Below are positions 1,531 to 28,118 of a stretch of 28,118 nt of DNA, in pieces. The stretch lies in NCBI GenBank assembly GCA_016177805.1, contig JACOUN010000036.1, positions 1 to 28,118 on the forward strand, given 5' to 3'. A program made the position numbers and the translations under genes. The notes beneath the pieces were generated by a model. The model searched no databases and was not told the origin of the DNA. It saw only the letters and a program-made list of their open reading frames with translations. Origin of the DNA: Rhodocyclales bacterium (GTDB lineage Bacteria > Pseudomonadota > Gammaproteobacteria > Burkholderiales > Rhodocyclaceae). How positions within the stretch are numbered: position 1 is the first letter of the stretch; every line of letters starts with the position of its first letter.

Positions 1531-2634
1531 TTAGATAACGCCGGGAGGAATGCAAAAGCTGGTTTGCGATTGGCATGATGACGATGGTTGCCCGGAGGCG
1601 GCAGGGTTCGCGGCAATCCGATGACCCTGTGCCGTCTTGGTCGTCTCGAAGCGCAGCGGCAGAAACCGCTGCACCACCTCCATGTTGGTTTCGAGGTGCG
1701 ATGACAGCGTGGCGGTGGTCAGGCTGCCGCCGCGCGCGAGCGCCAGCGGCAGCACCAGTTGATCGGCCAGGTGCTCGCCGACCGCGGCATCCGAGGCGCG
1801 GTCGGCGCGGGCGGCCTTGATCACGCGCGCGGCGACGGCTTCGGCGGGCAGGCCGCGTTCGCCGAAGGCGACGAACACTTCGGTCACTTCGCTGTGCTGG
1901 TCGACCAGCAGCAACGCGTTGCCTGGTCCTTCGCGAGCGGGCAGGACGCGCAGTTCAACTTCGGCACCCAGCGCGGCGGCTTCCACCATGGTCAGTTCGC
2001 GCCTGGCGACATCCACCGGCACGCCCGCGACCACGGCCACGGCGCGCGCCTGCAGCGGCGTGCCGCGCTCGCACAGATGCAGGGTCTTCAGCGCCGCGAC
2101 CGGGGTGACGCGCGCGCGGATCTCGCCCCCGCCGGCCGGGTAGAAGCCGTGGCGCAGCAGTTCGATGTCCATGTCCACCCCCATGCGGCGCATCAGCGGT
2201 AGCCAGGCGTGGATCAGGAAGTCGGCGGGCGGGGCGGCCGGGTTGTGCGTGCCGCCGCTGACCGTCACCGTGCTCGGCGCGTCGGCAAACCACAGCGCGG
2301 GGAGGATGGTTTGCAGCACCAGGGTGCAGCTACCGGCGCTGCCGATGGCGTGGCGATAGTCGCCGCCACGGATGCGTCCGGGCACGAAGTGCAGTGAGCG
2401 CGAGCCCAGCGCCGCGCCATCCACCCGCGCGCCGCAGATCTGCGCGGCGGCCTGCACGGCGGTCAGGTGCTGGCGCAGCAGCCCCGGTTTGGCGCGGCGG
2501 GCGCGGATGTGGTCGAGGCGCAGCGGCGTGCCGGTGATCATCGACAGCGTCAACGCGGTGCGCAGTATCTGCCCGCCGCCTTCGCCTTGTGAGCCGTCGA
2601 GCGTCACGGTGTCGAGCGTACAGGTGTCAGGCAT
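1531..2634 (-). CDS. rtcA: RNA 3'-terminal phosphate cyclase RtcA, with about 25 extra C-terminal residues compared with E. coli.
   Basis: LDGSQGEGGGQILRTALTLSMITG, RAKPGLLRQHLT and FAIGSAGSCTLVLQTILPALWFA match my recollection of E. coli RtcA closely. The ATG at 2634 overlaps the upstream gene's stop by 8 nt. Confidence 0.95.
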   Translation of the reverse strand: MPDTCTLDTVTLDGSQGEGGGQILRTALTLSMITGTPLRLDHIRARRAKPGLLRQHLTAVQAAAQICGARVDGAALGSRSLHFVPGRIRGGDYRHAIGSAGSCTLVLQTILPALWFADAPSTVTVSGGTHNPAAPPADFLIHAWLPLMRRMGVDMDIELLRHGFYPAGGGEIRARVTPVAALKTLHLCERGTPLQARAVAVVAGVPVDVARRELTMVEAAALGAEVELRVLPAREGPGNALLLVDQHSEVTEVFVAFGERGLPAEAVAARVIKAARADRASDAAVGEHLADQLVLPLALARGGSLTTATLSSHLETNMEVVQRFLPLRFETTKTAQGHRIAANPAASGQPSSSCQSQTSFCIPPGVI

Positions 2635-3445
2635 GGGAGTCTCCGGTCATGACGGTCTGGAGCAGGAAACGGTCGAGCGCCTCCGTGTCGCCTTGCGGCG
2701 TGCGGTAGGAAACGTCGCGGTCGACCTGCGCCAGCATGCCTTCTATGTAGGCGTGGATGGCAGGCCAGCGCGGCCCGTGCTCGGCTTCGCCGACGCGCAT
2801 CTTGACCGCCAGCAGGCGGTTGATTTCGTCGCGCAGGGTTTCGTCACTGATGGTTGCTTGCGCGAGTTCGGCGAAGCGCATCGGCGGCATGCTCCGGTAT
2901 TCGTCGATCCATTGCACCGCCAGCAGCGGGCGCAGCACGTACAGGTACTTTTTCAGACGCACCGTATCGCCCCGCAGATAGCCTTGAAAGTTCTTCTTGG
3001 CCATGGCGAGGTAGTGGTAGCGGCCGCGCATGGGCGAGAAGAACTGCGCCGCCAGCGCGCGCAGGCCGGCGGCGGCATCGGAGCGTTCGCGATAGATCAC
3101 CGGCGAGTCCAGCCATTCGAGCAGGGTCGGGTTGGAGCGGCGCAGCAGGCGCAGCGCCTTGCGCAGCTCCCAGCCGCTGACGTCCAGTTCGTCGCTGATC
3201 GGCAGTTCGATGACGTCGCGCTGCGCTTCGACGCGCAAATACCACGGCATGCGTGGCACGTAGACGAAGCGCACATCGTAGTCGCTGTCGGGCGAGGCGA
3301 AGCCCCAGCCCCGGCTCCCCGACTCGCAGGCGAACAGCACCCGCACCTCGTGGCGGGCCTCGATCTCGTCCAGCGCCTGCATCACGCGCTGGCGTACCGC
3401 CGGGTCTATCGGGTGGGCGGTGAGTATTGTGTTGCTTGTTTGCAT
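2627..3445 (-). CDS. Pol-beta-superfamily nucleotidyltransferase (272 aa); a predicted RNA-repair-associated NTase.
   Basis: The GS-x9-DxD minimal NTase signature is present in CESGSRGWGFASPDSDYDVRFVY. The gene sits between rtcB and rtcA in the same orientation. Its stop overlaps the rtcA start (ATGCCTGA), which suggests translational coupling. Confidence 0.85.
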   Translation of the reverse strand: MQTSNTILTAHPIDPAVRQRVMQALDEIEARHEVRVLFACESGSRGWGFASPDSDYDVRFVYVPRMPWYLRVEAQRDVIELPISDELDVSGWELRKALRLLRRSNPTLLEWLDSPVIYRERSDAAAGLRALAAQFFSPMRGRYHYLAMAKKNFQGYLRGDTVRLKKYLYVLRPLLAVQWIDEYRSMPPMRFAELAQATISDETLRDEINRLLAVKMRVGEAEHGPRWPAIHAYIEGMLAQVDRDVSYRTPQGDTEALDRFLLQTVMTGDSHA

Positions 3446-3482
3446 GACTATCTCTTTCGGTATGGTCGGCGGCGTGCCGTGG

Positions 3483-4724
3483 TCATCCTTTCACACACAC
3501 CACCTGACGCAGGGTGTGCACCACTTCCACCAGCTCGCGCTGGGCGTGCATCACCGCGTCGATGTCCTTGTAGGCCATCGGGATTTCGTCGATCACGTCG
3601 CTGTCCTTGCGGCATTCGACGTGGGCGGTGGCGCGCATCTGGTCTTCGATGGTGTAGCGGCGCTTGGCCTCGTTGCGGCTCATCGCGCGGCCGGCGCCGT
3701 GGCTGCAGGAGCAGAAGGCCGCTTCGTTGCCGAGGCCGCGCACGATGTAGCTGCGCGCGCCCATCGAGCCGGGGATGATCCCGAGTTCCCCTTTCTGCGC
3801 CGACACCGCGCCCTTGCGCGTGACCAGCACCTCCTGCCCGTAGTGGCGCTCGCGCTGCACGTAGTTGTGGTGGCAGTTCACCGCTTCCACGTCGGCGGTG
3901 AACGGCTTGGCGATCACCTGGCGCGCGGCGGTCACGACGTTCTGCATCATGGCCTGGCGGTTGCGCCGGGCGTAGTCCTGCGCCCAGCCGACGGCGGCGA
4001 CGTAGTCGTCGAAGTGCGTGCTGCCTTCCTCGAAGTAGGCCAGATCGCGGTGCGGCAAATCGGCGAGGTGCTGGCGCATGTCGGCCTGCGCCAGTTCGAT
4101 AAACACATTGCCGATCGCGTTGCCCACCCCGCGTGAGCCCGAGTGCAGCATGAACCACACCCGGTCGGCCTCGTCCAGGCACACTTCGATGAAGTGGTTG
4201 CCGGTTCCCAGCGTTCCAAGGTGCTTGTAGTTGTTGGTGTTCTTCAGGCGCGGGTATTTCTCGGTGATGCGCGCGAAGCCCGGCTGGAGTGCCTTCCACA
4301 GCGCGTCGACGTTGTCCGGCGGGTTCTCCCACGCGCCCTTGTCGCGGCCGCCGCGTGTCATCGTGCGGCCATGCGGCACGGCGCGTTCGATGGCGTCGCG
4401 CAGTCCGCCGAGCTGGTCCGGCAGATCGCGCGCGAGCAGGGTGGTGCGCGCGGCCATCATGCCGCAGCCGATGTCCACCCCGACGGCGGCCGGAATGATG
4501 GCGCCGACGGTCGGGATCACGCTGCCTATGGTCGAGCCCTTGCCCAGGTGTACGTCCGGCATCACCGCCAGATGGCGGAAGATGAACGGCATCCTGGCGG
4601 TGTTCATGAGCTGCGCGCGCGCTTCGGCTTCAACCGGCACGCCTTGCGTCCACATCCGGATCGGCGCGCCGTTGATCACCTCCAGCAGTTCGGAGGTCGT
4701 GGTGGTGTTGATGTTCGTTTCCAT
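3483..4724 (-). CDS. rtcB: RNA-splicing ligase RtcB (3'-phosphate/5'-OH ligase).
   Basis: Near-colinear identity with E. coli RtcB as I recall it: MWTQGVPVEAEARAQL, MPDVHLGKGSTIGSVIPT, CSCSHGAGR, PMAYKDIDAVM...VVCVKG. It is 413 aa. Confidence 0.97.
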   Translation of the reverse strand: METNINTTTTSELLEVINGAPIRMWTQGVPVEAEARAQLMNTARMPFIFRHLAVMPDVHLGKGSTIGSVIPTVGAIIPAAVGVDIGCGMMAARTTLLARDLPDQLGGLRDAIERAVPHGRTMTRGGRDKGAWENPPDNVDALWKALQPGFARITEKYPRLKNTNNYKHLGTLGTGNHFIEVCLDEADRVWFMLHSGSRGVGNAIGNVFIELAQADMRQHLADLPHRDLAYFEEGSTHFDDYVAAVGWAQDYARRNRQAMMQNVVTAARQVIAKPFTADVEAVNCHHNYVQRERHYGQEVLVTRKGAVSAQKGELGIIPGSMGARSYIVRGLGNEAAFCSCSHGAGRAMSRNEAKRRYTIEDQMRATAHVECRKDSDVIDEIPMAYKDIDAVMHAQRELVEVVHTLRQVVCVKG

Positions 4725-4755
4725 GTTCTTCTCTATCGTTTTCAGCTTGTTTGCG

Positions 4756-5895
4756 TCAGTTGCCCTTGAGTGTGACCAGGCCGTTCAGCACCTGATCCAG
4801 CCCGCCGAACACCGAGATCCGGTCGATCCGCTCCGCCACGCGCTCCAGCGTTTCCAGTTCCTTCAGGCGCAGCGCGGTCGGGTTGTCTTCCATGACCCGC
4901 GCGGTGTTGAGCAGCGAGCGGGTGGCCGAGGTTTCTTCGCGCCGGCGGATGACGTTGGCCTGGGCGGCCTTCTCCGCCTCGACCACCTGCGCGAGTATGG
5001 TGCGCATCTCGCCCGGCAGCACGATGTCCTTGACGCCGAGACTGCGGATCTCGATGCCGAATCCGGCCAGCCGCGTCACCGCGTACTCGCTCACCACCTC
5101 GTCGATGACGCGCTTGTTCTCCAGTAGTTCGTCGAGCGAACGGGTGCCCACCGCCGCGCGCAGCCCGAACTGCAGTTCGCGGTAGAGGTGTTCGACCGGT
5201 TTGGCGAGTTTCTCGCACGCCAGCAACACGTCGGCGTAACGCCAGGTCACGCCCAGGTTGATGCGCAGCGCGACCTTGTCGCGGGTCAGGATTTCCTGGC
5301 CGCTCACTTCCATGTTCTGCAGGCGCGTGTCCACCAGTTCGACCGAGATCTCGCGGTTGAAGCGCCAGTACGCCTCGATGCCGGGGTTCAGCATGCGTTC
5401 CATCCTGCCGTCCATCCTCACTATGCCGACATGGTAAGCCGGAACCTGCGCCAGCAGCACCGCGCCCAGGCCGGCCACCGGCCGGCCGCGCAGGCCGGGC
5501 TGGGTCAGGCGCATCGTCAGCGCGGCCGGCAGGGCGACCGTCTGGCGCAGATCGACCTTCTCCAGCCGGTGCGCGAGCACGCCCTTCCAGATCATGCGCC
5601 GGGTACCCGGCGGCAGGATTTCCACCAGCACGTCATTCTCGTAGCGCAGTCCCGCCTCGTCTTCGGACAGATCCATGATCTCGAAGCAGGATTCGACCAG
5701 ACGGGGTTCGCGGGCACGCAGATACTCACCCAGTTCGACATCGGTGAGCGCCGTGTCGATGCGCCATACCTGCACGCTCAGGCGGTTCATCGGGTCCCAG
5801 AAATAGTGGCGCCCGGCGCTCAGGAGGCGCACGAAATCCCCGTCCTTGAGCAAGGCGGCCTGTTCGTATTTCTTCACCACAAATCTCTTGATCAT
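4756..5895 (-). CDS. SPFH/band-7 (stomatin/flotillin-like) domain protein; first gene of the sigma54-driven rtc operon.
   Basis: The central SPFH core reads LRINLGVTWRY...GIEIRSLGVKDIVLPGEMRTILAQVVEAEKAAQANVIRRREETSATRSL, followed by a coiled-coil-like tail. I prefer the start at ATG 5895 (MIKRFVV), which has a GGAGAA SD 6 nt upstream. The ATG at 5913 lacks an SD. The gene ends 31 bp before rtcB. Confidence 0.88.
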   Translation of the reverse strand: MIKRFVVKKYEQAALLKDGDFVRLLSAGRHYFWDPMNRLSVQVWRIDTALTDVELGEYLRAREPRLVESCFEIMDLSEDEAGLRYENDVLVEILPPGTRRMIWKGVLAHRLEKVDLRQTVALPAALTMRLTQPGLRGRPVAGLGAVLLAQVPAYHVGIVRMDGRMERMLNPGIEAYWRFNREISVELVDTRLQNMEVSGQEILTRDKVALRINLGVTWRYADVLLACEKLAKPVEHLYRELQFGLRAAVGTRSLDELLENKRVIDEVVSEYAVTRLAGFGIEIRSLGVKDIVLPGEMRTILAQVVEAEKAAQANVIRRREETSATRSLLNTARVMEDNPTALRLKELETLERVAERIDRISVFGGLDQVLNGLVTLKGN

Positions 5896-6152
5896 GCTGT
5901 TCTCCAGTTTCATTCATGCGTTGCGTGAGCCGGTCAGCGCCGGCCCGGACGGACGCTTTGCGCGACACACCCAGGGAGGCGGGCGGTGAGCGCTGGGGGG
6001 AGCCACAAACGCGCTGCCCTCCCAGGCTCGCCGCCCGCCTTGCCGCGTGCGCGGCGCAGGGGTCGGTCCGGGCCGGCGACGGGGGCTTGCGCCCACCGCG
6101 ACCGGCGGTTGCTGCTTGACTGCGATGCTTCAGTCGTCTTTTGAGGACGATT

Positions 6153-6216
6153 TGGAGCGGGACTCGAACCCGCAACACGTTGCATATGCAACCGCTCTAC
6201 CCATTGAGCTATCCAG
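6153..6216 (-). ncRNA. tRNA-like element A (64 nt): canonical D-arm and T-arm, with shortened acceptor and anticodon-equivalent arms.
   Basis: Minus-sense sequence: CTGGA TA GCTC AATGGGT AGAGC G GTTGC-ATAT-GCAAC GTGTT GCGGG TTCGAGT CCCGC TCCA. The D-loop keeps the GG pair, and the T-loop TTCGAGT matches T-psi-C-G-A. The anticodon region is a 5-bp palindromic hairpin with a 4-nt loop, so no 7-nt anticodon loop exists. The acceptor helix is only 4-5 bp. It therefore cannot be a functional tRNA. Confidence 0.6.
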
Positions 6217-6265
6217 TGGTGTGCGATCCGGGAATCGAACCCGGATTTCTCAACCATGTCCGCAC
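6217..6265 (-). ncRNA. tRNA-like element B (49 nt): an acceptor/T-arm minihelix ending in an encoded ACCA, immediately 5' of element A.
   Basis: Minus-sense sequence: GTGCGGA CATGGTTGAGAAAT CCGGG TTCGATT CCCGG ATCGCAC A CCA. It has a perfect 5-bp T-stem, a TTCGATT loop and a 6-of-7 acceptor helix. The discriminator and CCA are encoded. It has no D or anticodon arms. Confidence 0.55.
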
Positions 6266-6393
6266 CATGACCGTGTCCTGCTGCCGCGGCATGCGCCAGA
6301 GCCAACGGGATTATTTCCGGGCCAGGCGCACCAGTGGGGCGGATGAACCCCGGCTCGTCGGCGTTGCAGCACTACAGCGGTCGAGCTACCCAT

Positions 6394-6410
6394 AGCGATA
6401 GGCGTGCCAG
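6394..6410 (-). promoter_or_regulatory. Sigma54 (RpoN) -24/-12 promoter for the tRNA-like/SPFH/rtcB/NTase/rtcA operon, divergent from rtcR.
   Basis: Minus-sense CTGGCAC-GCCTA-TCGCT. GG and GC are spaced exactly as in the TGGCAC-N5-TTGCW consensus. It sits 137 bp upstream of the rtcR start, as expected for an RtcR/sigma54 target. Confidence 0.6.
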
Positions 6411-6546
6411 TTGAGCCAGATTGGCGTGATAAATACGCAAGGCATTGAAATAGACGAGTAAATGCATGTTGCAGAAAGATCGTCGCAAGAACGACGCGCC
6501 GGCGTTACTATATGAAAGGCTAGTGAATTATCGTGTGGGATAAGCA

Positions 6547-8139
6547 ATGAAGAAGACGGTGGTGATCGGTTTTCTCGGGACTCAGCTCGACTACTCGGGG
6601 AATGGGGCCAAGCGGTGGGAGAGGTGGCGCCCCACCGTCAGCCTGTGCCAGCACGACGATCTGCTGGTGAGCCGGCTGGAACTGCTGCACGATGCACGTC
6701 GCCGGGGGTTGGCCGAGCGCGTCGCGCTCGACATCGCCAGCGTTTCACCGGAAACGCAAGTGCGCCGGGTTGAAACCGCGATCCGCGACCCGTGGGATTT
6801 CGAGGAGGTGTACACCGCGCTGCACGACTACGCGCGCGGCTACCCGTTCGACGTGGATAACGAGGACTACCTGATCCACATCACCACCGGCACCCACGTG
6901 GCGCAGATCTGCTGGTTCCTGCTGGCCGAGGCGCATTACCTGCCGGCACGGCTGCTGCAGACCTCGCCGCCACGCAAGCAGGCGCCGGCCGATTCGGTGG
7001 GCAGCTACACCCTGATCGATCTGGATCTGTCGCGTTACAACAAGATCGCGCAACGCTTCAGGCGTGAAGCCGAAGAAACCGTGACCCAGCTCAAGTCCGG
7101 CATCGCCACGCGCAACGCGCGCTTCAACGACATGATTGCGCAGATCGAGCACGTCGCCGGGCGCTCCTCCGCGCCGATGCTGCTCATCGGCCCGACCGGG
7201 GCGGGCAAGTCGTTTCTGGCCCGGCGCATCTTTGAGCTGAAGGTGCAGCGTCAGCGTTTCGCGGGTCGCTTCGTCGAAATCAACTGCGCCACGTTGCGCG
7301 GCGATTCAGCCATGTCGGCGCTGTTCGGTCACGTCAAGGGGGCGTTCACCGGGGCGCAGAGCGAGCGGCCGGGGTTGTTGCGTTCGGCGCATCAGGGGTT
7401 GCTGTTTCTCGATGAAATCGGGGAATTGGGCCTGGATGAGCAGGCCATGCTGCTCAAGGCGGTCGAGGAGAAACGCTTCTTCCCGTTCGGCGGCGACCGC
7501 GAGGTGGATAGCGACTTCCAGCTCATCGCCGGAACCCACCGCGATCTGCGGCAATGGGTGGCCGAAGGCCGTTTTCGCGAAGACCTCTACGCCCGCATCA
7601 ATCTGTGGACCTTCGATCTGCCGGGGTTGGCGGCGCGGCGCGAAGACATCGAACCGAACATCGATTTTGAACTGCGCCGCTATGCCGAAGCCGAAAACCA
7701 GCAGGTGCGCTTCAACGTCGAAGCGCGTCAGGCTTACTTGCGCTTCTGCAGCTCTGCCGAAGCGCGCTGGCCCGGCAATTTCCGCGAGCTGTCCGCGTCG
7801 ATCACGCGCCTGGCGACGCTAAGCGATGCGGGGCGCATCACCGTCGAGCATGTGCACGAGGAGATCGCCCGCCTGCGCCGCAGTTGGGGGGGGGATGAGT
7901 CCGGGGGCGGAGTGCTGAGCGCATTGCTGGGTGAGCGTGCGGAACAGATCGATCTGTTCGATCGCGCCCAGTTGTCCGCCGTGATCGCGGTGTGCCAGGC
8001 GTCGAACAGCCTGTCCGACGCCGGGCGCAAGCTGTTCGCGGTGTCACGTCAGGGAAAGAAGCAGCCCAACGACGCGGACCGGCTGCGCAAGTATCTGGCG
8101 CGATTCGGTCTGGATTGGGCTGCGCTCAGCGGCGCTTGA
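6547..8139 (+). CDS. rtcR: RtcR: a sigma54-dependent transcriptional activator with an N-terminal CARF domain, a AAA+ sigma54-interaction domain and a C-terminal HTH.
   Basis: The N-terminus (MKKTVVIGFLGTQLDYSGNGAKRWERWRPT...IASVSPETQV...PWDFEEVY...YLIHITTGTHVAQICWFLLAEA) matches my recollection of E. coli RtcR. Walker A GPTGAGKS and an ESELFGH-like SALFGH motif are present. Confidence 0.95.
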   Translation: MKKTVVIGFLGTQLDYSGNGAKRWERWRPTVSLCQHDDLLVSRLELLHDARRRGLAERVALDIASVSPETQVRRVETAIRDPWDFEEVYTALHDYARGYPFDVDNEDYLIHITTGTHVAQICWFLLAEAHYLPARLLQTSPPRKQAPADSVGSYTLIDLDLSRYNKIAQRFRREAEETVTQLKSGIATRNARFNDMIAQIEHVAGRSSAPMLLIGPTGAGKSFLARRIFELKVQRQRFAGRFVEINCATLRGDSAMSALFGHVKGAFTGAQSERPGLLRSAHQGLLFLDEIGELGLDEQAMLLKAVEEKRFFPFGGDREVDSDFQLIAGTHRDLRQWVAEGRFREDLYARINLWTFDLPGLAARREDIEPNIDFELRRYAEAENQQVRFNVEARQAYLRFCSSAEARWPGNFRELSASITRLATLSDAGRITVEHVHEEIARLRRSWGGDESGGGVLSALLGERAEQIDLFDRAQLSAVIAVCQASNSLSDAGRKLFAVSRQGKKQPNDADRLRKYLARFGLDWAALSGA

Positions 8140-23154: not shown

Positions 23155-23592
23155 CTATTTCTTGCCCGGCGCGACGCCTTTGGCGTTGCCGCGCGGAGGT
23201 GGCTTGGGGGGTTCCGGCTCGGGGGTGCTCGCCTCCGGAGGGGGAGGCGTCGAGCCCTGCGCATGCATGAAGTTCCATGGCCACATCGCTGCCGCCGCGA
23301 ACGGATCGGGCGCCGCGCTCCCTTCCTTGGCCTGCGCCTCGGCGGCGTGCTCGCTCATGGCCTTGACCGCCGCCAGTGCGACGCGCTGCATCTCCAGCCC
23401 CTGGGTGGTCATCTGCAGCATGTTGAGGTTCATCTTCAACCAGTTCTCGACCGCCTTGAGATCGGCGATGCGCTTGTCCAGCTCGTCCAGGTCCACCGTG
23501 GGGGTGACCATGCCGGGCAGCGAAAAGCCCATGTTGTTCCACATGCCACGTACGAAATCGAGCGGGTCCTGCGCTGGCTTGTCCTGTGACAT
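23155..23592 (-). CDS. PhaM-like polyhydroxyalkanoate-granule-associated protein (putative): helical N-domain plus a Lys/Pro-rich basic tail.
   Basis: The product reads MSQDKPAQDPLDFVRGMWNNMGFSLPGM... and ends in the tail PPPPEASTPEPEPPKPPPRGNAKGVAPGKK. A GGAGAGG SD is present. The assignment rests on recalled similarity to betaproteobacterial PhaM, so it is uncertain. Confidence 0.6.
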   Translation of the reverse strand: MSQDKPAQDPLDFVRGMWNNMGFSLPGMVTPTVDLDELDKRIADLKAVENWLKMNLNMLQMTTQGLEMQRVALAAVKAMSEHAAEAQAKEGSAAPDPFAAAAMWPWNFMHAQGSTPPPPEASTPEPEPPKPPPRGNAKGVAPGKK

Positions 23593-23684: not shown

Positions 23685-24887
23685 TTACCAGGACGTTTCG
23701 CGCTCGGCCGTGGACGAGATCTTGTGGATGGACAGGTCGGCGCCGGCGAACTCTTCCTCGGCATCCAGGCGCAGGCCGATGGCGGCCTTGATCGCGCCAT
23801 ACACCACCAGCCCGCCCGCCAGCGCGATCGCGATGCCGGCCAGTGTGCCCGCCAGTTGCGACATCAGGTTGACGCCGCCCAGGCCGCCCAGCGTGGCGCT
23901 GCCGAAGATGCCCGCCGCGATGCCGCCCCACGCGCCACACAGCCCATGCAGTGGCCACACGCCGAGCACATCGTCGATGCGCCAGCGGTTCTGCGCCTGG
24001 GTAAATAGCAGCACGAACATCCCTCCGGCGACGACGCCGACCACCAACGCACCAAGCGGGTGCATCAGGTCCGAGCCGGCGCATACCGCGACCAGCCCGG
24101 CGAGCGGGCCGTTGTGCACGAAGCCGGGGTCGTTGCGCCCGACCGCGAGCGCCGCCAGCGTGCCGCCGACCATCGCCATCAGCGAGTTCAGTGCCACCAG
24201 GCCGTTGATCGCTTCGAGGCGCTGCGCGCTCATCACGTTGAAGCCGAACCAGCCCACCGCCAATATCCACGCGCCCAGCGCGAGAAAGGGAATGGACGAG
24301 GGGGGGTGGGCGGAAATGGCGCCGTCCTTGTGGTAGCGACCGCGCCGTGCCCCCAGCAGCAGCACTGCCGGCAAGGCGATCCAGCCACCGAAGGCGTGCA
24401 CTACGACGCTGCCGGCGAAGTCGTGGAAGGGGTTGCCGAAGGTGGTTTCCAGCCATGCCTGGAAGCCGAAGTTGCCGTTCCACACCATGCCTTCGAAGAA
24501 CGGGTAGACGAAGCCGACGATGAGAAAGGTCGCGATCAGTTGCGGGCCGAAGCGCGCCCGCTCGGCGATGCCGCCCGAGACGATGGCCGGAATGGCGGCG
24601 GCGAAGGTCAGCAGAAAGAAGAACTTGACCAGCTCATAGCCGGAGTTGGTCACCAGTTCGGTGGCGCTGCCGAAGAAACTGGTGCCGTAGGCGATGGCGT
24701 AGCCGACGGCGAAGTAAGCCAGCGTCGACATCGAGAAATCGCTGATGATCTTCACCAGCGCGTTGACCTGGTTCTTCTTGCGCACCGTGCCGACTTCGAG
24801 AAAGGCGAAGCCCGCGTGCATGGCGAGCACCATGATGGCGCCCAATAATACGAAAAGAACGTCGGCCGAGGTCTTGAACTGCTCCAT
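23685..24887 (-). CDS. amt: Ammonium transporter (Amt/MEP family), 401 aa.
   Basis: The product starts MEQFKTSADVLFVLLGAIMVLAMHAGFAFLEVG, with 11 TM helices and a conserved C-terminus. Its start is ATG 24887. The six-frame ORF is over-extended to 25049. Confidence 0.92.
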   Translation of the reverse strand: MEQFKTSADVLFVLLGAIMVLAMHAGFAFLEVGTVRKKNQVNALVKIISDFSMSTLAYFAVGYAIAYGTSFFGSATELVTNSGYELVKFFFLLTFAAAIPAIVSGGIAERARFGPQLIATFLIVGFVYPFFEGMVWNGNFGFQAWLETTFGNPFHDFAGSVVVHAFGGWIALPAVLLLGARRGRYHKDGAISAHPPSSIPFLALGAWILAVGWFGFNVMSAQRLEAINGLVALNSLMAMVGGTLAALAVGRNDPGFVHNGPLAGLVAVCAGSDLMHPLGALVVGVVAGGMFVLLFTQAQNRWRIDDVLGVWPLHGLCGAWGGIAAGIFGSATLGGLGGVNLMSQLAGTLAGIAIALAGGLVVYGAIKAAIGLRLDAEEEFAGADLSIHKISSTAERETSW

Positions 24888-24922
24888 GAGTGTGCTCCGG
24901 GTATGCGTAACCGGGGGCACCA

Positions 24923-24938
24923 AGCAGATCGCGTGCCA
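24923..24938 (-). promoter_or_regulatory. Sigma54 -24/-12 promoter for amt.
   Basis: Minus-sense TGGCAC-GCGAT-CTGCT with correct GG/GC spacing, about 35 nt upstream of the amt ATG. Confidence 0.5.
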
Positions 24939-25023
24939 CAAGTGGTTGTTATTTAAATACAACGAACTGCCGTTCGGCCGCACTGCGATTGGGCGTGCAA
25001 GGCACGACCGTGGTGCGTGGCGG

Positions 25024-25062
25024 GCACCATCACGGTGCACGGCGCGCACCGTGATGGCGTGC
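25024..25062. promoter_or_regulatory. Two NtrC-type palindromic enhancer sites (GCACC-N5-GGTGC), themselves forming a larger inverted repeat, about 100 bp upstream of the amt sigma54 promoter.
   Basis: GCACCATCACGGTGC and GCACCGTGATGGCGTGC. The half-sites match the NtrC consensus TGCACC/GGTGCA. Confidence 0.45.
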
Positions 25063-25152
25063 GCCGGCAGGCTACCGTGGAGGTCGCCGTGGATTGCCGC
25101 CTACCACCGGCCGTGCGAACATCGCCGCTCCGCAGCGACCGGGGTTCGGTTG

Positions 25153-26115
25153 ATGATCGCAGGTGTTTTGTGTGCCCTGGGCGCCGGGCTGATGTGGGGG
25201 CTGATATTCCTGGTGCCGTTGATACTGGGTGACTACCCGCCGGTGGTGCTGGCGTTCGGCCGTTACGTGGCGTTCGGCCTGCTGGCGGTGGGGCTGGCGT
25301 GGTTCGATCGGCGCGCGCTGGCACGCCTGACGCGGGACGACTGGAAGGAGGCCGCCAGGCTCGCGCTGGTGGGCAACCTGCTGTACTACGGCACCCTGGC
25401 GGCGGCTATACAGTTGGCGGGGGCGCAGGTGCCAGCGCTGATCATCGGCACCTTGCCGGTCGTCATCGCAATCACCGCCAACCTGGTCGAACAACGTAGC
25501 GGCGCGGATAACGGCGCGGTCCAGTGGCGGCGCCTGGCCTTGCCGCTGGCGATCATGTTCGCCGGCCTGGTGTTCGTGCAGCATGGCCCCGATGGCGTGG
25601 CGGAACCCGCGCGGGCACCGGGGGTTTCCTACGTGAGCGGGCTGCTGCTCGCGCTGTGCGCGCTGCTGTGCTGGACCTGGTACCCACTGCGTAACAGCCG
25701 CTGGCTGCGCGCCCGTCCACCCGGACTGTCGCGCGCCTGGGCGACCGCCCAGGGCTTGGCGACCCTGCCGCTGGCCGTGCTGGCGGCGCTGGGTTATGCG
25801 GTCTGGGAGTGGCTGGCGCACGAGGCCGGGGGGCGCTACGCGTGGCCGTTCGGAGCGCGTCCGGGCATGTACGTCGGACTGATGGTGCTGACCGGCCTTG
25901 CGGCCTCGTGGCTGGGGACGCTGTTGTGGAACAAGGCCAGCCATCTGCTACCGGCGCCTCTGGTGGGGCAGTTGATCGTGTTCGAGACGCTGGCGGCGTT
26001 GCTTTATGCCTTTGCCTGGGAGGCACGCTGGCCTGTGGCATACGAGGTCGTGGGGATCGTGTTGCTGGTGGGTGGGGTGTTGCTCGGTGTGAGGATTTTT
26101 CGTGCGTCTGACTGA
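25153..26115 (+). CDS. DMT-superfamily (EamA-like) transporter, 320 aa, 10 TM.
   Basis: Hydrophobic duplicated 5-TM architecture starting MIAGVLCALGAGLMWGLIFLVP. The six-frame ORF starts earlier, but the upstream part is non-hydrophobic and lacks an SD. Confidence 0.8.
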   Translation: MIAGVLCALGAGLMWGLIFLVPLILGDYPPVVLAFGRYVAFGLLAVGLAWFDRRALARLTRDDWKEAARLALVGNLLYYGTLAAAIQLAGAQVPALIIGTLPVVIAITANLVEQRSGADNGAVQWRRLALPLAIMFAGLVFVQHGPDGVAEPARAPGVSYVSGLLLALCALLCWTWYPLRNSRWLRARPPGLSRAWATAQGLATLPLAVLAALGYAVWEWLAHEAGGRYAWPFGARPGMYVGLMVLTGLAASWLGTLLWNKASHLLPAPLVGQLIVFETLAALLYAFAWEARWPVAYEVVGIVLLVGGVLLGVRIFRASD

Positions 26116-26214
26116 CCAAAGAGTCGCCTGGTATTGTCTGCCTTTCCCAAGCATTGAGGTTCCACCCGCCATACGCATTCATTCTCGCAGGAATTGTATG
26201 GTTTCCGATCTGTA

Positions 26215-26244
26215 GCCAAGCAGCATTAATGCTATCATCTTGGC
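26215..26244. promoter_or_regulatory. Nested palindrome GCCAAG-c-AGCATTAATGCT-atcat-CTTGGC in an AT-richer intergenic zone. The core 12 bp is a perfect palindrome.
   Basis: Read directly from the sequence. It lies about 230 bp upstream of the HTH gene, where GC content drops compared with the flanks. Confidence 0.35.
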
Positions 26245-26475
26245 CCATGTCGGCTGGTGCATGGCGCTGTGGGCGGCGTGCCACCAATGCCGACGCATCG
26301 ATGGTGCAGACCAACTGCGGCGCCGAACAAGGCGCGCCCGCGTAACGCCGGCAGCGGCGCGGCAAGGAATGAAACAGGGGGGGGCGCCACGATTCCCACA
26401 GATCCAGTCGAACTGAAACTTCAACCTCCGCACCGCGCCTTCCGGGCGGCGTTTCAAACCGGAGTCGGTATTACG

Positions 26476-26775
26476 ATGAAGCTAAAAATCTACACCGCCG
26501 CCGAGGTTCGCGAGCTACGCCGCAAGAGCGGCCAGACCCAATACAAGTTCTGGCAATGCCTGCACATCACACAGAGCGGCGGCAGTCGGTATGAGTCGGG
26601 GCACAAGATGCCGGCGCCCGTACAACTGCTGTTGAACATAACCTTTGGCACAGAAGCCAAGTCTGCGGCCTGCGTTAACGCGCTGCGCGAGCTGGCGAAG
26701 CCGCCGAAGAAGACAAAGGCTCCGAAACCGGCGAAACCGGCGAAAGAGGTGACCGCGTTTGGCATGCTGCCATGA
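26476..26775 (+). CDS. Small XRE-family helix-turn-helix DNA-binding protein (99 aa) with a Lys/Pro/Ala-rich basic C-terminal tail.
   Basis: A GGAG SD lies 10 nt upstream. The HTH reads VRELRRKSGQTQYKFWQCLHITQSGGSRYESGHKMPAPVQLLL. The tail reads KPPKKTKAPKPAKPAKE. Confidence 0.7.
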   Translation: MKLKIYTAAEVRELRRKSGQTQYKFWQCLHITQSGGSRYESGHKMPAPVQLLLNITFGTEAKSAACVNALRELAKPPKKTKAPKPAKPAKEVTAFGMLP

Positions 26776-27081
26776 CGATGCGGGACGAAACGCCATTGCG
26801 GCCGACCATCCGACCGCGATGGCCCCCGACCCGTGAATCAGTCACGGTGTTGACGGACGCCAGCCTTCCCGGAATGGCGGTAGCAGACGGCTCGTCGAGC
26901 GCCTGAGGACGCACGCTGCGCAATGGGCTGCCCAAGACGTGCACAGGAACACACCGAACATGACATCGCCCATCGCCCGGCAACGGCCTGGCGTACCCAA
27001 CCCCTACAGCGGCGTAGCGCCGAAGCGCCAGCGCAGCGCTCCGATCACGCTTCAGATGGCGCCGAGCGGCTGCCTTCAGGT

Positions 27082-27861
27082 ATGTTGAATAAGCTCCGCG
27101 CGCAGTTTCCCCGGCTCGAAGGGCCGCTCCTTACGGGCCTGAGTCCGTTCACCCTACGCGGTGAGGTGATCGGATGGATCGTCCGGATCGGGCGGCAAGG
27201 CATCTTGTTTCAGCGGGATTTCTGGGCCTCGACCCATTGCGGCATGGAGGCGGCTTTTCGCGCCGCGTCCGCCTACCGGGATGAGGTCGATCGGGACTAC
27301 CCCCGGCTGTCGAGCGCCGAGCGATGCACGACGCTGCGCGCCAACAATACCAGCGGGATCCCAGGGGTAAGCCGGCAGATGGTGGAAGGCAGGCCGTACT
27401 GGGTGGCGGAAGTGGGCGTTCGGGGATACAAGAAGGCGCGCCGCTTCTCCATCCGCAAGTATGGCGACGAGCGTGCCCGGAATCTGGCGATCGAGGCCCG
27501 CCGCGCGCTCCTCGCGCACGTGCAAACCCTGCAAGAGCGTCGGGCCGAGCGGTCCCCACTTGAATCTGCGCAGCCCGAAAACCTGCCCCTGGCGCGGGCC
27601 GCGCTGCGCGGCTTTCCGTGGCCGAATCCCCATGTGCATCGTGCCAGTGGTGTTCTGGGTGTGCGGCTCATGCGCGCCGAACACGTGCGCAAGGACGGAA
27701 CGGTGTCGGTTGCCGAACACTGGATGGCCTCGATGAAGGTTGCCGAGCGGACCTATCGCGCCTGTTTCTCCGTGAAACGCTTCGGCAACGAAGAGGCCAT
27801 GCGTCTGGCGATCGAGCAGCGCAGGGCATGGGAGGCCGAGTACAGAAAACCCCGACGCTGA
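27082..27861 (+). CDS. Protein with three tandem AP2 (Apetala-2/ERF-like) DNA-binding domains, about 259 aa.
   Basis: Three repeats of the AP2 pattern are present. Two examples are SGIPGVSRQMVEGRPYWVAEVGVRGYKKARRFSIRKYGDERARNLAIEARRAL and SGVLGVRLMRAEHV...WMASMKVAERTYRACFSVKRFGNEEAMRLAIEQRRAWE. The first repeat contains GWIVRIGRQGILFQRDFW...EAAFRAASAYRDE. An alternative upstream start at 26923 exists. Confidence 0.65.
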   Translation: MLNKLRAQFPRLEGPLLTGLSPFTLRGEVIGWIVRIGRQGILFQRDFWASTHCGMEAAFRAASAYRDEVDRDYPRLSSAERCTTLRANNTSGIPGVSRQMVEGRPYWVAEVGVRGYKKARRFSIRKYGDERARNLAIEARRALLAHVQTLQERRAERSPLESAQPENLPLARAALRGFPWPNPHVHRASGVLGVRLMRAEHVRKDGTVSVAEHWMASMKVAERTYRACFSVKRFGNEEAMRLAIEQRRAWEAEYRKPRR

Positions 27862-28071: not shown

Positions 28072-28118
28072 ATGAACCGCATTCTCGTTGCGCATACCCC
28101 GCTGGGTAAAGCCCTATG
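28072..28118 (+). CDS. Start of an unidentified protein (MNRILVAHTPLGKAL...), truncated by the window end.
   Basis: An ATG with a putative upstream promoter. Only 15 codons are visible. Confidence 0.3.
   Translation, partial: MNRILVAHTPLGKAL

Follow-up and report, generated by a model that had tools for sequence, protein, structure and literature searches.

An RsaL-type regulator with a C-terminal FGxLP peptide, probably carried on mobile DNA of Rhodocyclales

The gene at 26476..26775 on the forward strand of the window (the whole stretch of 28,118 nucleotides analyzed here, which is an entire contig of a Rhodocyclales metagenome-assembled genome) encodes, as judged from profile searches and a structural model, an RsaL-type DNA-binding regulator and not a generic XRE protein. 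The regulator is probably carried on mobile DNA. The best explanation, which we regard as reasonably probable, is that the product is a small, dimeric, sequence-specific repressor of the RsaL-like family HTH_92, from a subfamily that travels with the plasmids and genomic islands of Rhodocyclales, and that a docking or degron peptide is displayed on its flexible tail. The searchable literature, in which no paper treats RsaL-like proteins outside quorum sensing, does not describe the mobile-element subfamily, the association with nucleases or the C-terminal motif FGxLP; the Pfam family itself is known.

An RsaL-type helix-turn-helix domain

The open reading frame is a real gene that runs from ATG 26476 to TGA 26773-26775 (the stop codon is included in the coordinates) and yields the 99 residues that an earlier note, made from the letters of this DNA alone, had given (MKLKIYTAAEVRELRRKSGQTQYKFWQCLHITQSGGSRYESGHKMPAPVQLLLNITFGTEAKSAACVNALRELAKPPKKTKAPKPAKPAKEVTAFGMLP). 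A longer in-frame reading from GTG 26257 is disfavored because the homologues all begin with MKLK and because the extension has a non-coding pattern of GC content at the three codon positions (0.70/0.66/0.62; the respective values for the gene are 0.56/0.47/0.75). The Shine-Dalgarno sequence, described in the earlier note as strong, was overstated: as read from the sequence, it consists of a GGAG core only (26461..26464, forward strand), separated from the downstream ATG by a long spacing of 11 nt. The interval 26050-27000 yielded no sigma-70-like promoter, and the 5′ region of the gene shows no significant RNA structure (folding z-score of -0.58) and no Rfam match.

The assignment of a canonical XRE helix-turn-helix in the same note stands with respect to the fold but not to the family. 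In the profile search, residues 12-55 match positions 1-44 of the 45 positions of Pfam PF22495 (HTH_92, RsaL-like HTH; E=1.6e-19, 69.3 bits, cut-off 27), whereas HTH_3 gives no Pfam match and HTH_31 remains sub-threshold (E=0.0077). The SRYESG recognition helix, which had been singled out as well, is the most conserved stretch of the family. An exhaustive search collected 850 homologous cluster representatives with E-values up to 0.001. Among the proteins of the PDB, the only significant relative detected with phmmer is RsaL of Pseudomonas aeruginosa (5j2y; E=5.6e-6), to which the protein aligns as ISQSCGSRFENG versus ITQSGGSRYESG, with the stretch ISQSCGSRFENGENLPFPIYLLL paired with ITQSGGSRYESGHKMPAPVQLLL.

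The AlphaFold2 model (a monomer, built from 26 homologues) predicts a folded five-helix domain comprising residues 8-74 (26497..26697, forward strand), with pLDDT above 90 and helices at residues 8-18, 22-28, 33-40 (the recognition helix, QSGGSRYE), 47-57 (the equivalent of the dimer-interface helix of RsaL) and 60-74. When this model was compared with the PDB using Foldseek, the top matches were the two chains 5j2y_A/B (probability 1.00, TM-score of 0.66-0.70 on the target length, identity of ~30%); HigA2, HigA, the 434 and lambda repressors and the C proteins C.AhdI and C.Esp1396I followed at lower ranks, with weak E-values.

[quoted passage not shown] When these functional residues are transferred through the phmmer alignment to 5j2y, the RsaL residues R20, Q27, G35, S37, Q38, S42, R43 and E45 correspond to R12, Q22, H30, T32, Q33, S37, R38 and E40, respectively, so that the base-reading pair becomes Q33/R38; all contact residues are retained or conservatively replaced, except for the change of G35 to H30. 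Across the family, Q22, Q33, R38, E40, P46, L52 and L53 show little or no variation, and the hydrophobic helix that serves as the dimer interface in RsaL is conserved, with P46, L52 and L53 invariant. Furthermore, proteins of 150-340 aa in which two HTH_92 domains are fused in tandem are common among the matches (L115, 6813-7289; L160, 2727-3203; P0055, P0060, P0063 and others); such natural single-chain “dimers” fit with the dimer being the working unit. Thus, the likeness to RsaL (5J2Y) extends over the Pfam family, the five-helix fold, the recognition helix QSxGSR[FY]E, the base-reading Gln and Arg, the hydrophobic dimer helix and the small size. The two proteins differ at the C-terminus, as RsaL is 80 aa long and ends in KIRE, whereas a 25-aa disordered basic tail with FGxLP is found only in the protein from the window.

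A likely operator did not emerge from the window itself. The RsaL box (TATG-N7-CATA, allowing up to one mismatch) does not occur within 6 kb of the HTH_92 gene, and the seven one-mismatch sites of the window are all located between 12988 and 20020. The AT-rich palindrome that the earlier note had placed at 26215..26244 has a perfect core only at 26222..26233 (AGCATTAATGCT, 12 bp), which is flanked off-centre by GCCAAG (26215-26220) and CTTGGC (26239-26244). This candidate operator was rejected: the window contains 18 perfect 12-bp palindromes, the probability that the 360-nt spacer holds one or more by chance is ~0.11, and its ATG/CAT half-sites face outward, 3 bp off centre, whereas those of the RsaL box face inward, with 10-bp spacing. 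In the loci L004, L013, L100, L101, L103 and L104, a strongly conserved block, (CTGGAACTGGCC)GCGCTAGAATATGC(C/G)(C)TTTG, lies ~25-40 nt upstream of the HTH_92 ATG, and it persists in close relatives even where another gene precedes HTH_92. This block, which is probably a dedicated promoter/operator, is common to the close relatives in the form GCTAGAATATGC, ~25 nt 5′ of the start codon; the window has no such block. At the position of the block, L102 carries TGCATT-N3-AATGCA, the resemblance of which to GCATTAATGC in the window is faint, differs in spacing and is not significant.

Genomic context in the window and in related loci

The HTH_92 gene is located at the contig end, after housekeeping genes. 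Upstream lie ordinary chromosomal genes, namely the RtcR-RtcB-RlaP-RtcA RNA-repair cluster, ABC transporters, acyl-CoA ligases, an ammonium transporter and an EamA transporter. The low-GC segment invoked in the earlier note is unexceptional in bulk GC content (0.61, with two other 1-kb windows of the contig at 0.603), but the GC content at third codon positions (GC3) is indeed atypical: the HTH_92 gene (0.75) and the next gene (0.74) have the lowest values in the window, under those of all 20 upstream host genes (0.82-0.91), which fits acquired DNA. No integrase, att site or tRNA was seen in the window, and the contig stops 1.3 kb downstream of the gene, so that island status is putative. Run SRR12113422 of the source metagenome carries an identical copy of the locus. 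Searches of defence-system and phage libraries returned nothing decisive for the locus, with no match in PADLOC and none in the phage genome collection.

The downstream neighbor (26923..27861, forward strand) starts 147 nt 3′ of the HTH_92 gene and encodes, according to Pfam, an AP2-domain DNA-binding protein that could be regulated cargo; it is not homologous to the neighbors seen in the relatives. AP2 DNA-binding domains occur at least twice in its 312-aa product, for which the only relatives on plasmids are hypothetical proteins from Agrobacterium/Rhizobium (~38% identity over ~115 aa). The N-terminal ~55 residues of this product do not look authentic, and translation may instead begin at ATG 27085 (MLNKLRAQF).

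Several features in the rest of the window are recorded here for completeness. The RNA-repair cluster at 1531-8139 is complete, with the RtcA cyclase, RlaP, the RtcB ligase and a Band-7/SPFH protein on the minus strand and the sigma-54 activator RtcR transcribed divergently. The listed EamA open reading frame (456 aa, 24745-26115) overlaps the start of the divergent ammonium-transporter gene (23685-25049) by ~300 nt; since the EamA domain match begins only at residue 139, the real start is probably located much further downstream. Two minus-strand open reading frames, 491-1447 and 23155-23592, show good coding GC3 (0.82 and 0.86, respectively) and match no Pfam family at E up to 1e-5. At the contig end, a new open reading frame (28072-28118), preceded by TTGACA-N18-CACAAT, begins with MNRILVAHTPLGKAL, presumably resembling the N-termini of VgrG, the type VI secretion spike; vgrG paralogues are a frequent cause of assembly breaks.

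The closest relatives of the HTH_92 protein come from Rhodocyclales (Thauera, Aromatoleum, Azoarcus) and are encoded on plasmids and genomic islands. Among the fetched loci, three types can be distinguished: a ~100-aa chromosomal type that is widespread in Rhodocyclales and other Betaproteobacteria, a ~85-aa type, and the closest type (MKLKxYTG...LLNIAFGT), which includes the protein from the window; the latter two are both found on mobile DNA. The plasmids concerned include one with KorA, ParB, ParA and TrwC, the conjugative Thauera pTX1 and EbN1 plasmid 2, and Thauera pTha01, which is typed as non-mobilizable, whereas islands with integrases, transposases, SRAP and H-NS are represented in Thauera humireducens and in the EbN1 chromosome; on one contig, the relative lies next to a gene for a 2273-aa polyvalent MuF_C protein. 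Thus, the “island regulator” of the earlier note survives as a plausible regulator on horizontally acquired DNA, given the atypical GC3 and the exclusively plasmid or island locations of the close relatives. Between the window and the related loci, no homology of the flanks was detected, and the HTH_92 gene alone is shared, the sole weak exception being an AP2-like stretch in L026 (31% identity); the partner genes found upstream in relatives (encoding a 106-aa protein, a 126-aa protein and YdjM) are absent from the window. The regulated target in the window genome is accordingly a guess.

The chromosomal ~100-aa HTH_92 paralogue (type-A loci; L028-L091, L134-L178) reads …REIRRKLGxNQxQFWSKxGVTQSGGSRYESGRNxPRPVQxLLRLVHVEQID…KKEARAKRK, is conserved in numerous Rhodocyclales, also matches contigs that bear the labels Neisseria and Bordetella, and never adjoins nucleases.

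The recurrent neighbors of the relatives are SRAP, H-NS, KfrA, YdjM, transposases and, above all, nucleases. When genes for SNase, Endonuclease_1, Endonuclease_NS and HNH_2 were counted within 1.5 kb, such a gene was present in 22 of the 69 distinct loci of the non-chromosomal types versus none of the 89 loci of the chromosomal type; in L004, the HTH_92 stop and the start of the downstream nuclease overlap. A perfect LexA-box-like site, CTGT-N8-ACAG (CTGTAGATGTTTACAG), occurs in L004 (~7616-7635) and at the same position in L012, with a one-mismatch version in L014. In Thauera, where a 106-aa gene precedes the HTH_92-SNase pair, the site separates this gene from a fragment of an SRAP gene, and its presence suggests SOS control of the Thauera island module that includes the pair.

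The association with nucleases is the main argument for a timing switch comparable to the C proteins of restriction-modification systems, which would delay or limit the expression of potentially harmful cargo, for example a nuclease, once the element has entered a new host. This possibility, which falls within the best explanation and is not a genuine competitor, is also in line with the presence of C.AhdI and C.Esp1396I among the structural neighbors, weak as that similarity is, with the conserved promoter that close relatives possess immediately upstream of the gene and, more generally, with the likeness of a small dimeric HTH protein encoded just 5′ of a nuclease gene on mobile DNA in the relatives. 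However, neither a methyltransferase nor a restriction enzyme accompanies the gene, the nucleases of the relatives (SNase, Endonuclease I, Endonuclease_NS) are non-specific, no repeated operator resembling a C-box was found, and the window holds no nuclease. In this specific form, the proposal is improbable, even though it fares better than the readings considered below.

The C-terminal tail and the FGxLP motif

The folded domain is followed by a tail, residues 75-99 (KPPKKTKAPKPAKPAKEVTAFGMLP; 26698..26772, forward strand), that is predicted to be disordered (pLDDT about 50-55) and consists of a basic, proline-rich linker and a terminal motif; in homologues, the tail varies in both length and sequence. 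The notable part of the tail, which the earlier note had missed in favor of the lysine-rich stretch, is the C-terminal peptide F95-G96-M97-L98-P99 (FGxLP-COOH; 26758..26772, forward strand). F95, G96, L98 and P99 are invariant in 16 homologues that show 35-67% identity in the domain, and the preceding linker of about 15 to 45 residues has no conserved sequence. Among the 19,046 stop-to-stop open reading frames of at least 50 residues in all fetched loci, 15 end in FG.LP, all of them HTH_92 proteins, and no non-HTH_92 protein in these loci has this ending; the best 80 metagenome contigs yielded no further loci with the motif. All motif-bearing homologues with a source name belong to Rhodocyclales; the named carriers are Thauera linaloolentis, Aromatoleum buckelii, A. 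aromaticum EbN1 (ebA350), Thauera sp. K11 pTX1 and an Azoarcus metagenome-assembled genome. The copy on EbN1 plasmid 2, p2A165 (L093, 6241-6312; 90 aa), is cut by an in-frame TAG, past which the frame continues to ...PRGFGYLP*, indicating recent loss of the tail; its chromosomal counterpart ebA350 (L179, 9001-9342; 113 aa), which adjoins a module of H-NS, Endonuclease_NS and SRAP genes, shows 92% DNA identity to it. The tail is therefore not essential in every copy.

To our knowledge, none of the beta-clamp, SSB-tail and ClpX-tag motifs fits FGxLP. We tentatively propose that FGxLP, held on a disordered Pro/Lys tether of 15-45 residues, could be a new short linear motif that plugs a repressor of Rhodocyclales mobile elements into a host machine. 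This machine could be a protease or adaptor, whose action would render the repressor conditionally unstable and thereby switch cargo such as exported nucleases, or it could be a DNA-associated hub protein.

A different function for the tail is conceivable if the protein is an antitoxin or immunity-type regulator, in which the HTH domain autoregulates the operon and the FGxLP tail folds onto and neutralizes the nuclease or other toxin encoded by the adjacent gene, in the manner of HigA, MqsA or HipB. The usual antitoxin layout, indeed, is an N-terminal DNA-binding domain with a disordered C-terminal peptide, and in HipB the disordered C-terminal end serves as a Lon degron. The Cro/C1-like HTH with a GxSRYE-type recognition helix is shared with the MqsA/HigA-type antitoxins and HipB, a match to the MqsA antitoxin HTH was obtained (TIGR03830, E=4.6e-6), HigA2 and HigA are among the structural neighbors, and relatives are frequently tightly coupled to a downstream nuclease gene, up to the stop/start overlap in L004. 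However, the TIGR03830 score (26.4 bits) is far below the family cut-off of 61.8, the zinc-binding N-domain is lacking, PADLOC gives no match, no toxin family is encoded beside the gene, and the next gene of the window, 147 nt away, encodes a DNA-binding protein. Moreover, the genes beside members with FGxLP are of mutually unrelated kinds (AP2 protein, SNase, Endonuclease I, HNH_2, a convergent KfrA and unknowns), so that the partner of FGxLP is probably not the product of the neighboring gene, and most of the SNase-linked relatives have no FGxLP. The SNase and endonuclease families found as neighbors are usually exported, and at least two of the neighboring nucleases (L093, L094) begin with a hydrophobic, signal-peptide-like N-terminus; nucleases that look exported would have no need for a cytoplasmic antidote. 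Taken together, the antitoxin reading is unlikely.

The part of the tail emphasized in the earlier note is the basic stretch KPPKKTKAPKPAKPAKE, which is present as described, with 7 K, 5 P and 3 A in 17 residues (41% K, 29% P, 18% A). It includes KPAKPAK, encoded by the tandem 9-nt repeat AAACCGGCG x2 followed by AAA (26725..26745, forward strand; repeats 26725-26742), with a direct repeat (D3) recorded nearby. In a search for the tail among homologues, KPA-type repeats occurred in only 1 of 178 single-domain family proteins, the one from the window (P0001), and the closest homologue (65% identity) carries APKPVTVPVAFDKLP in place of KPAKPAK; comparison of the sequences indicates that KPAKPAK arises from a private 9-nt tandem duplication. 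What the relatives do have in common is a basic patch straight after helix 5, P-K-K-x-K, which takes the form (N/K/R)-P-K-K-K-(A/T)-K in close relatives, and a net charge of +3 or more, found in 77 of the 127 family tails with 8 or more residues.

These features bear on the earlier suggestion that the protein is a nucleoid-associated protein or xenogeneic silencer, with an H1-like K/P/A tail that would silence the island through non-specific binding to AT-rich foreign DNA. The composition of the 17-residue stretch does resemble that of H1-type tails (PhaM, AlgP, mycobacterial HupB, chlamydial Hc1), many homologue tails are basic, and the gene lies in DNA of atypical GC3, a location in probably foreign DNA that recalls H-NS, MvaT, Lsr2 and Rok. 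However, H1-like tails are long, multi-repeat and conserved as such, whereas the protein from the window has two KPA units acquired by private duplication in a tail of only 25 aa, and in many relatives (74-87 aa) the tail is much shorter or almost non-existent. The protein keeps the Gln and Arg with which RsaL reads bases, no homology to H-NS, MvaT, Lsr2 or Rok was detected (the Pfam matches being confined to HTH_92 and the sub-threshold HTH_31), the AlphaFold2 model comprises a single globular HTH domain with no coiled-coil oligomerization domain, and the tail contains no RGR AT-hook. In addition, bona fide H-NS genes are separately encoded next to homologues in Thauera and Aromatoleum islands. 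The silencer reading is thus quite improbable.

Finally, that the protein is a true RsaL orthologue, i.e. a quorum-sensing repressor of a luxI-type synthase gene, is, despite the agreement in Pfam family, fold and DNA-contact residues, essentially excluded by the context, which is that of mobile elements and not of quorum sensing: no Autoind_synth or Autoind_bind was detected among the 23 window proteins scanned (20 upstream and three at the end of the contig, which stops 1.3 kb downstream of the HTH_92 gene) or in the neighborhoods of the relatives, the gene has no lasR/lasI-type neighbors and no RsaL box nearby, and the identity to RsaL is only about 30%.

Proposed mode of action and implications

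With the mobile-element repressor as the preferred reading, we infer the following mode of action from the fold, the conserved residues and the genomic associations. The dimer would recognize a palindromic operator through helix 3 and would repress its own promoter and/or adjacent cargo, the latter being a nuclease gene in many of the relatives and, in the window, the gene with the AP2 domain. The basic patch after helix 5 probably adds non-specific DNA contacts, and the proline/lysine linker would serve as a flexible tether through which FGxLP is offered to a partner, either a protease or adaptor, in which case the peptide would be a degron, or another protein of the host or the element.

By itself, the finding is modest, in that it concerns an uncharacterized branch of a known HTH family. 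Nevertheless, RsaL-type domains are widespread outside quorum sensing, in regulators encoded on plasmids and islands, as indicated by the 850 cluster representatives, many of them beside nuclease genes, and the repeated occurrence of regulator and nuclease side by side points to a controlled role for the poorly understood nucleases of mobile elements. The only part that deserves follow-up is the FGxLP end, a clean, testable candidate for a new docking or degron motif, for which Aromatoleum aromaticum EbN1 (ebA350) and Thauera linaloolentis offer hosts that can be cultivated and are genetically tractable.
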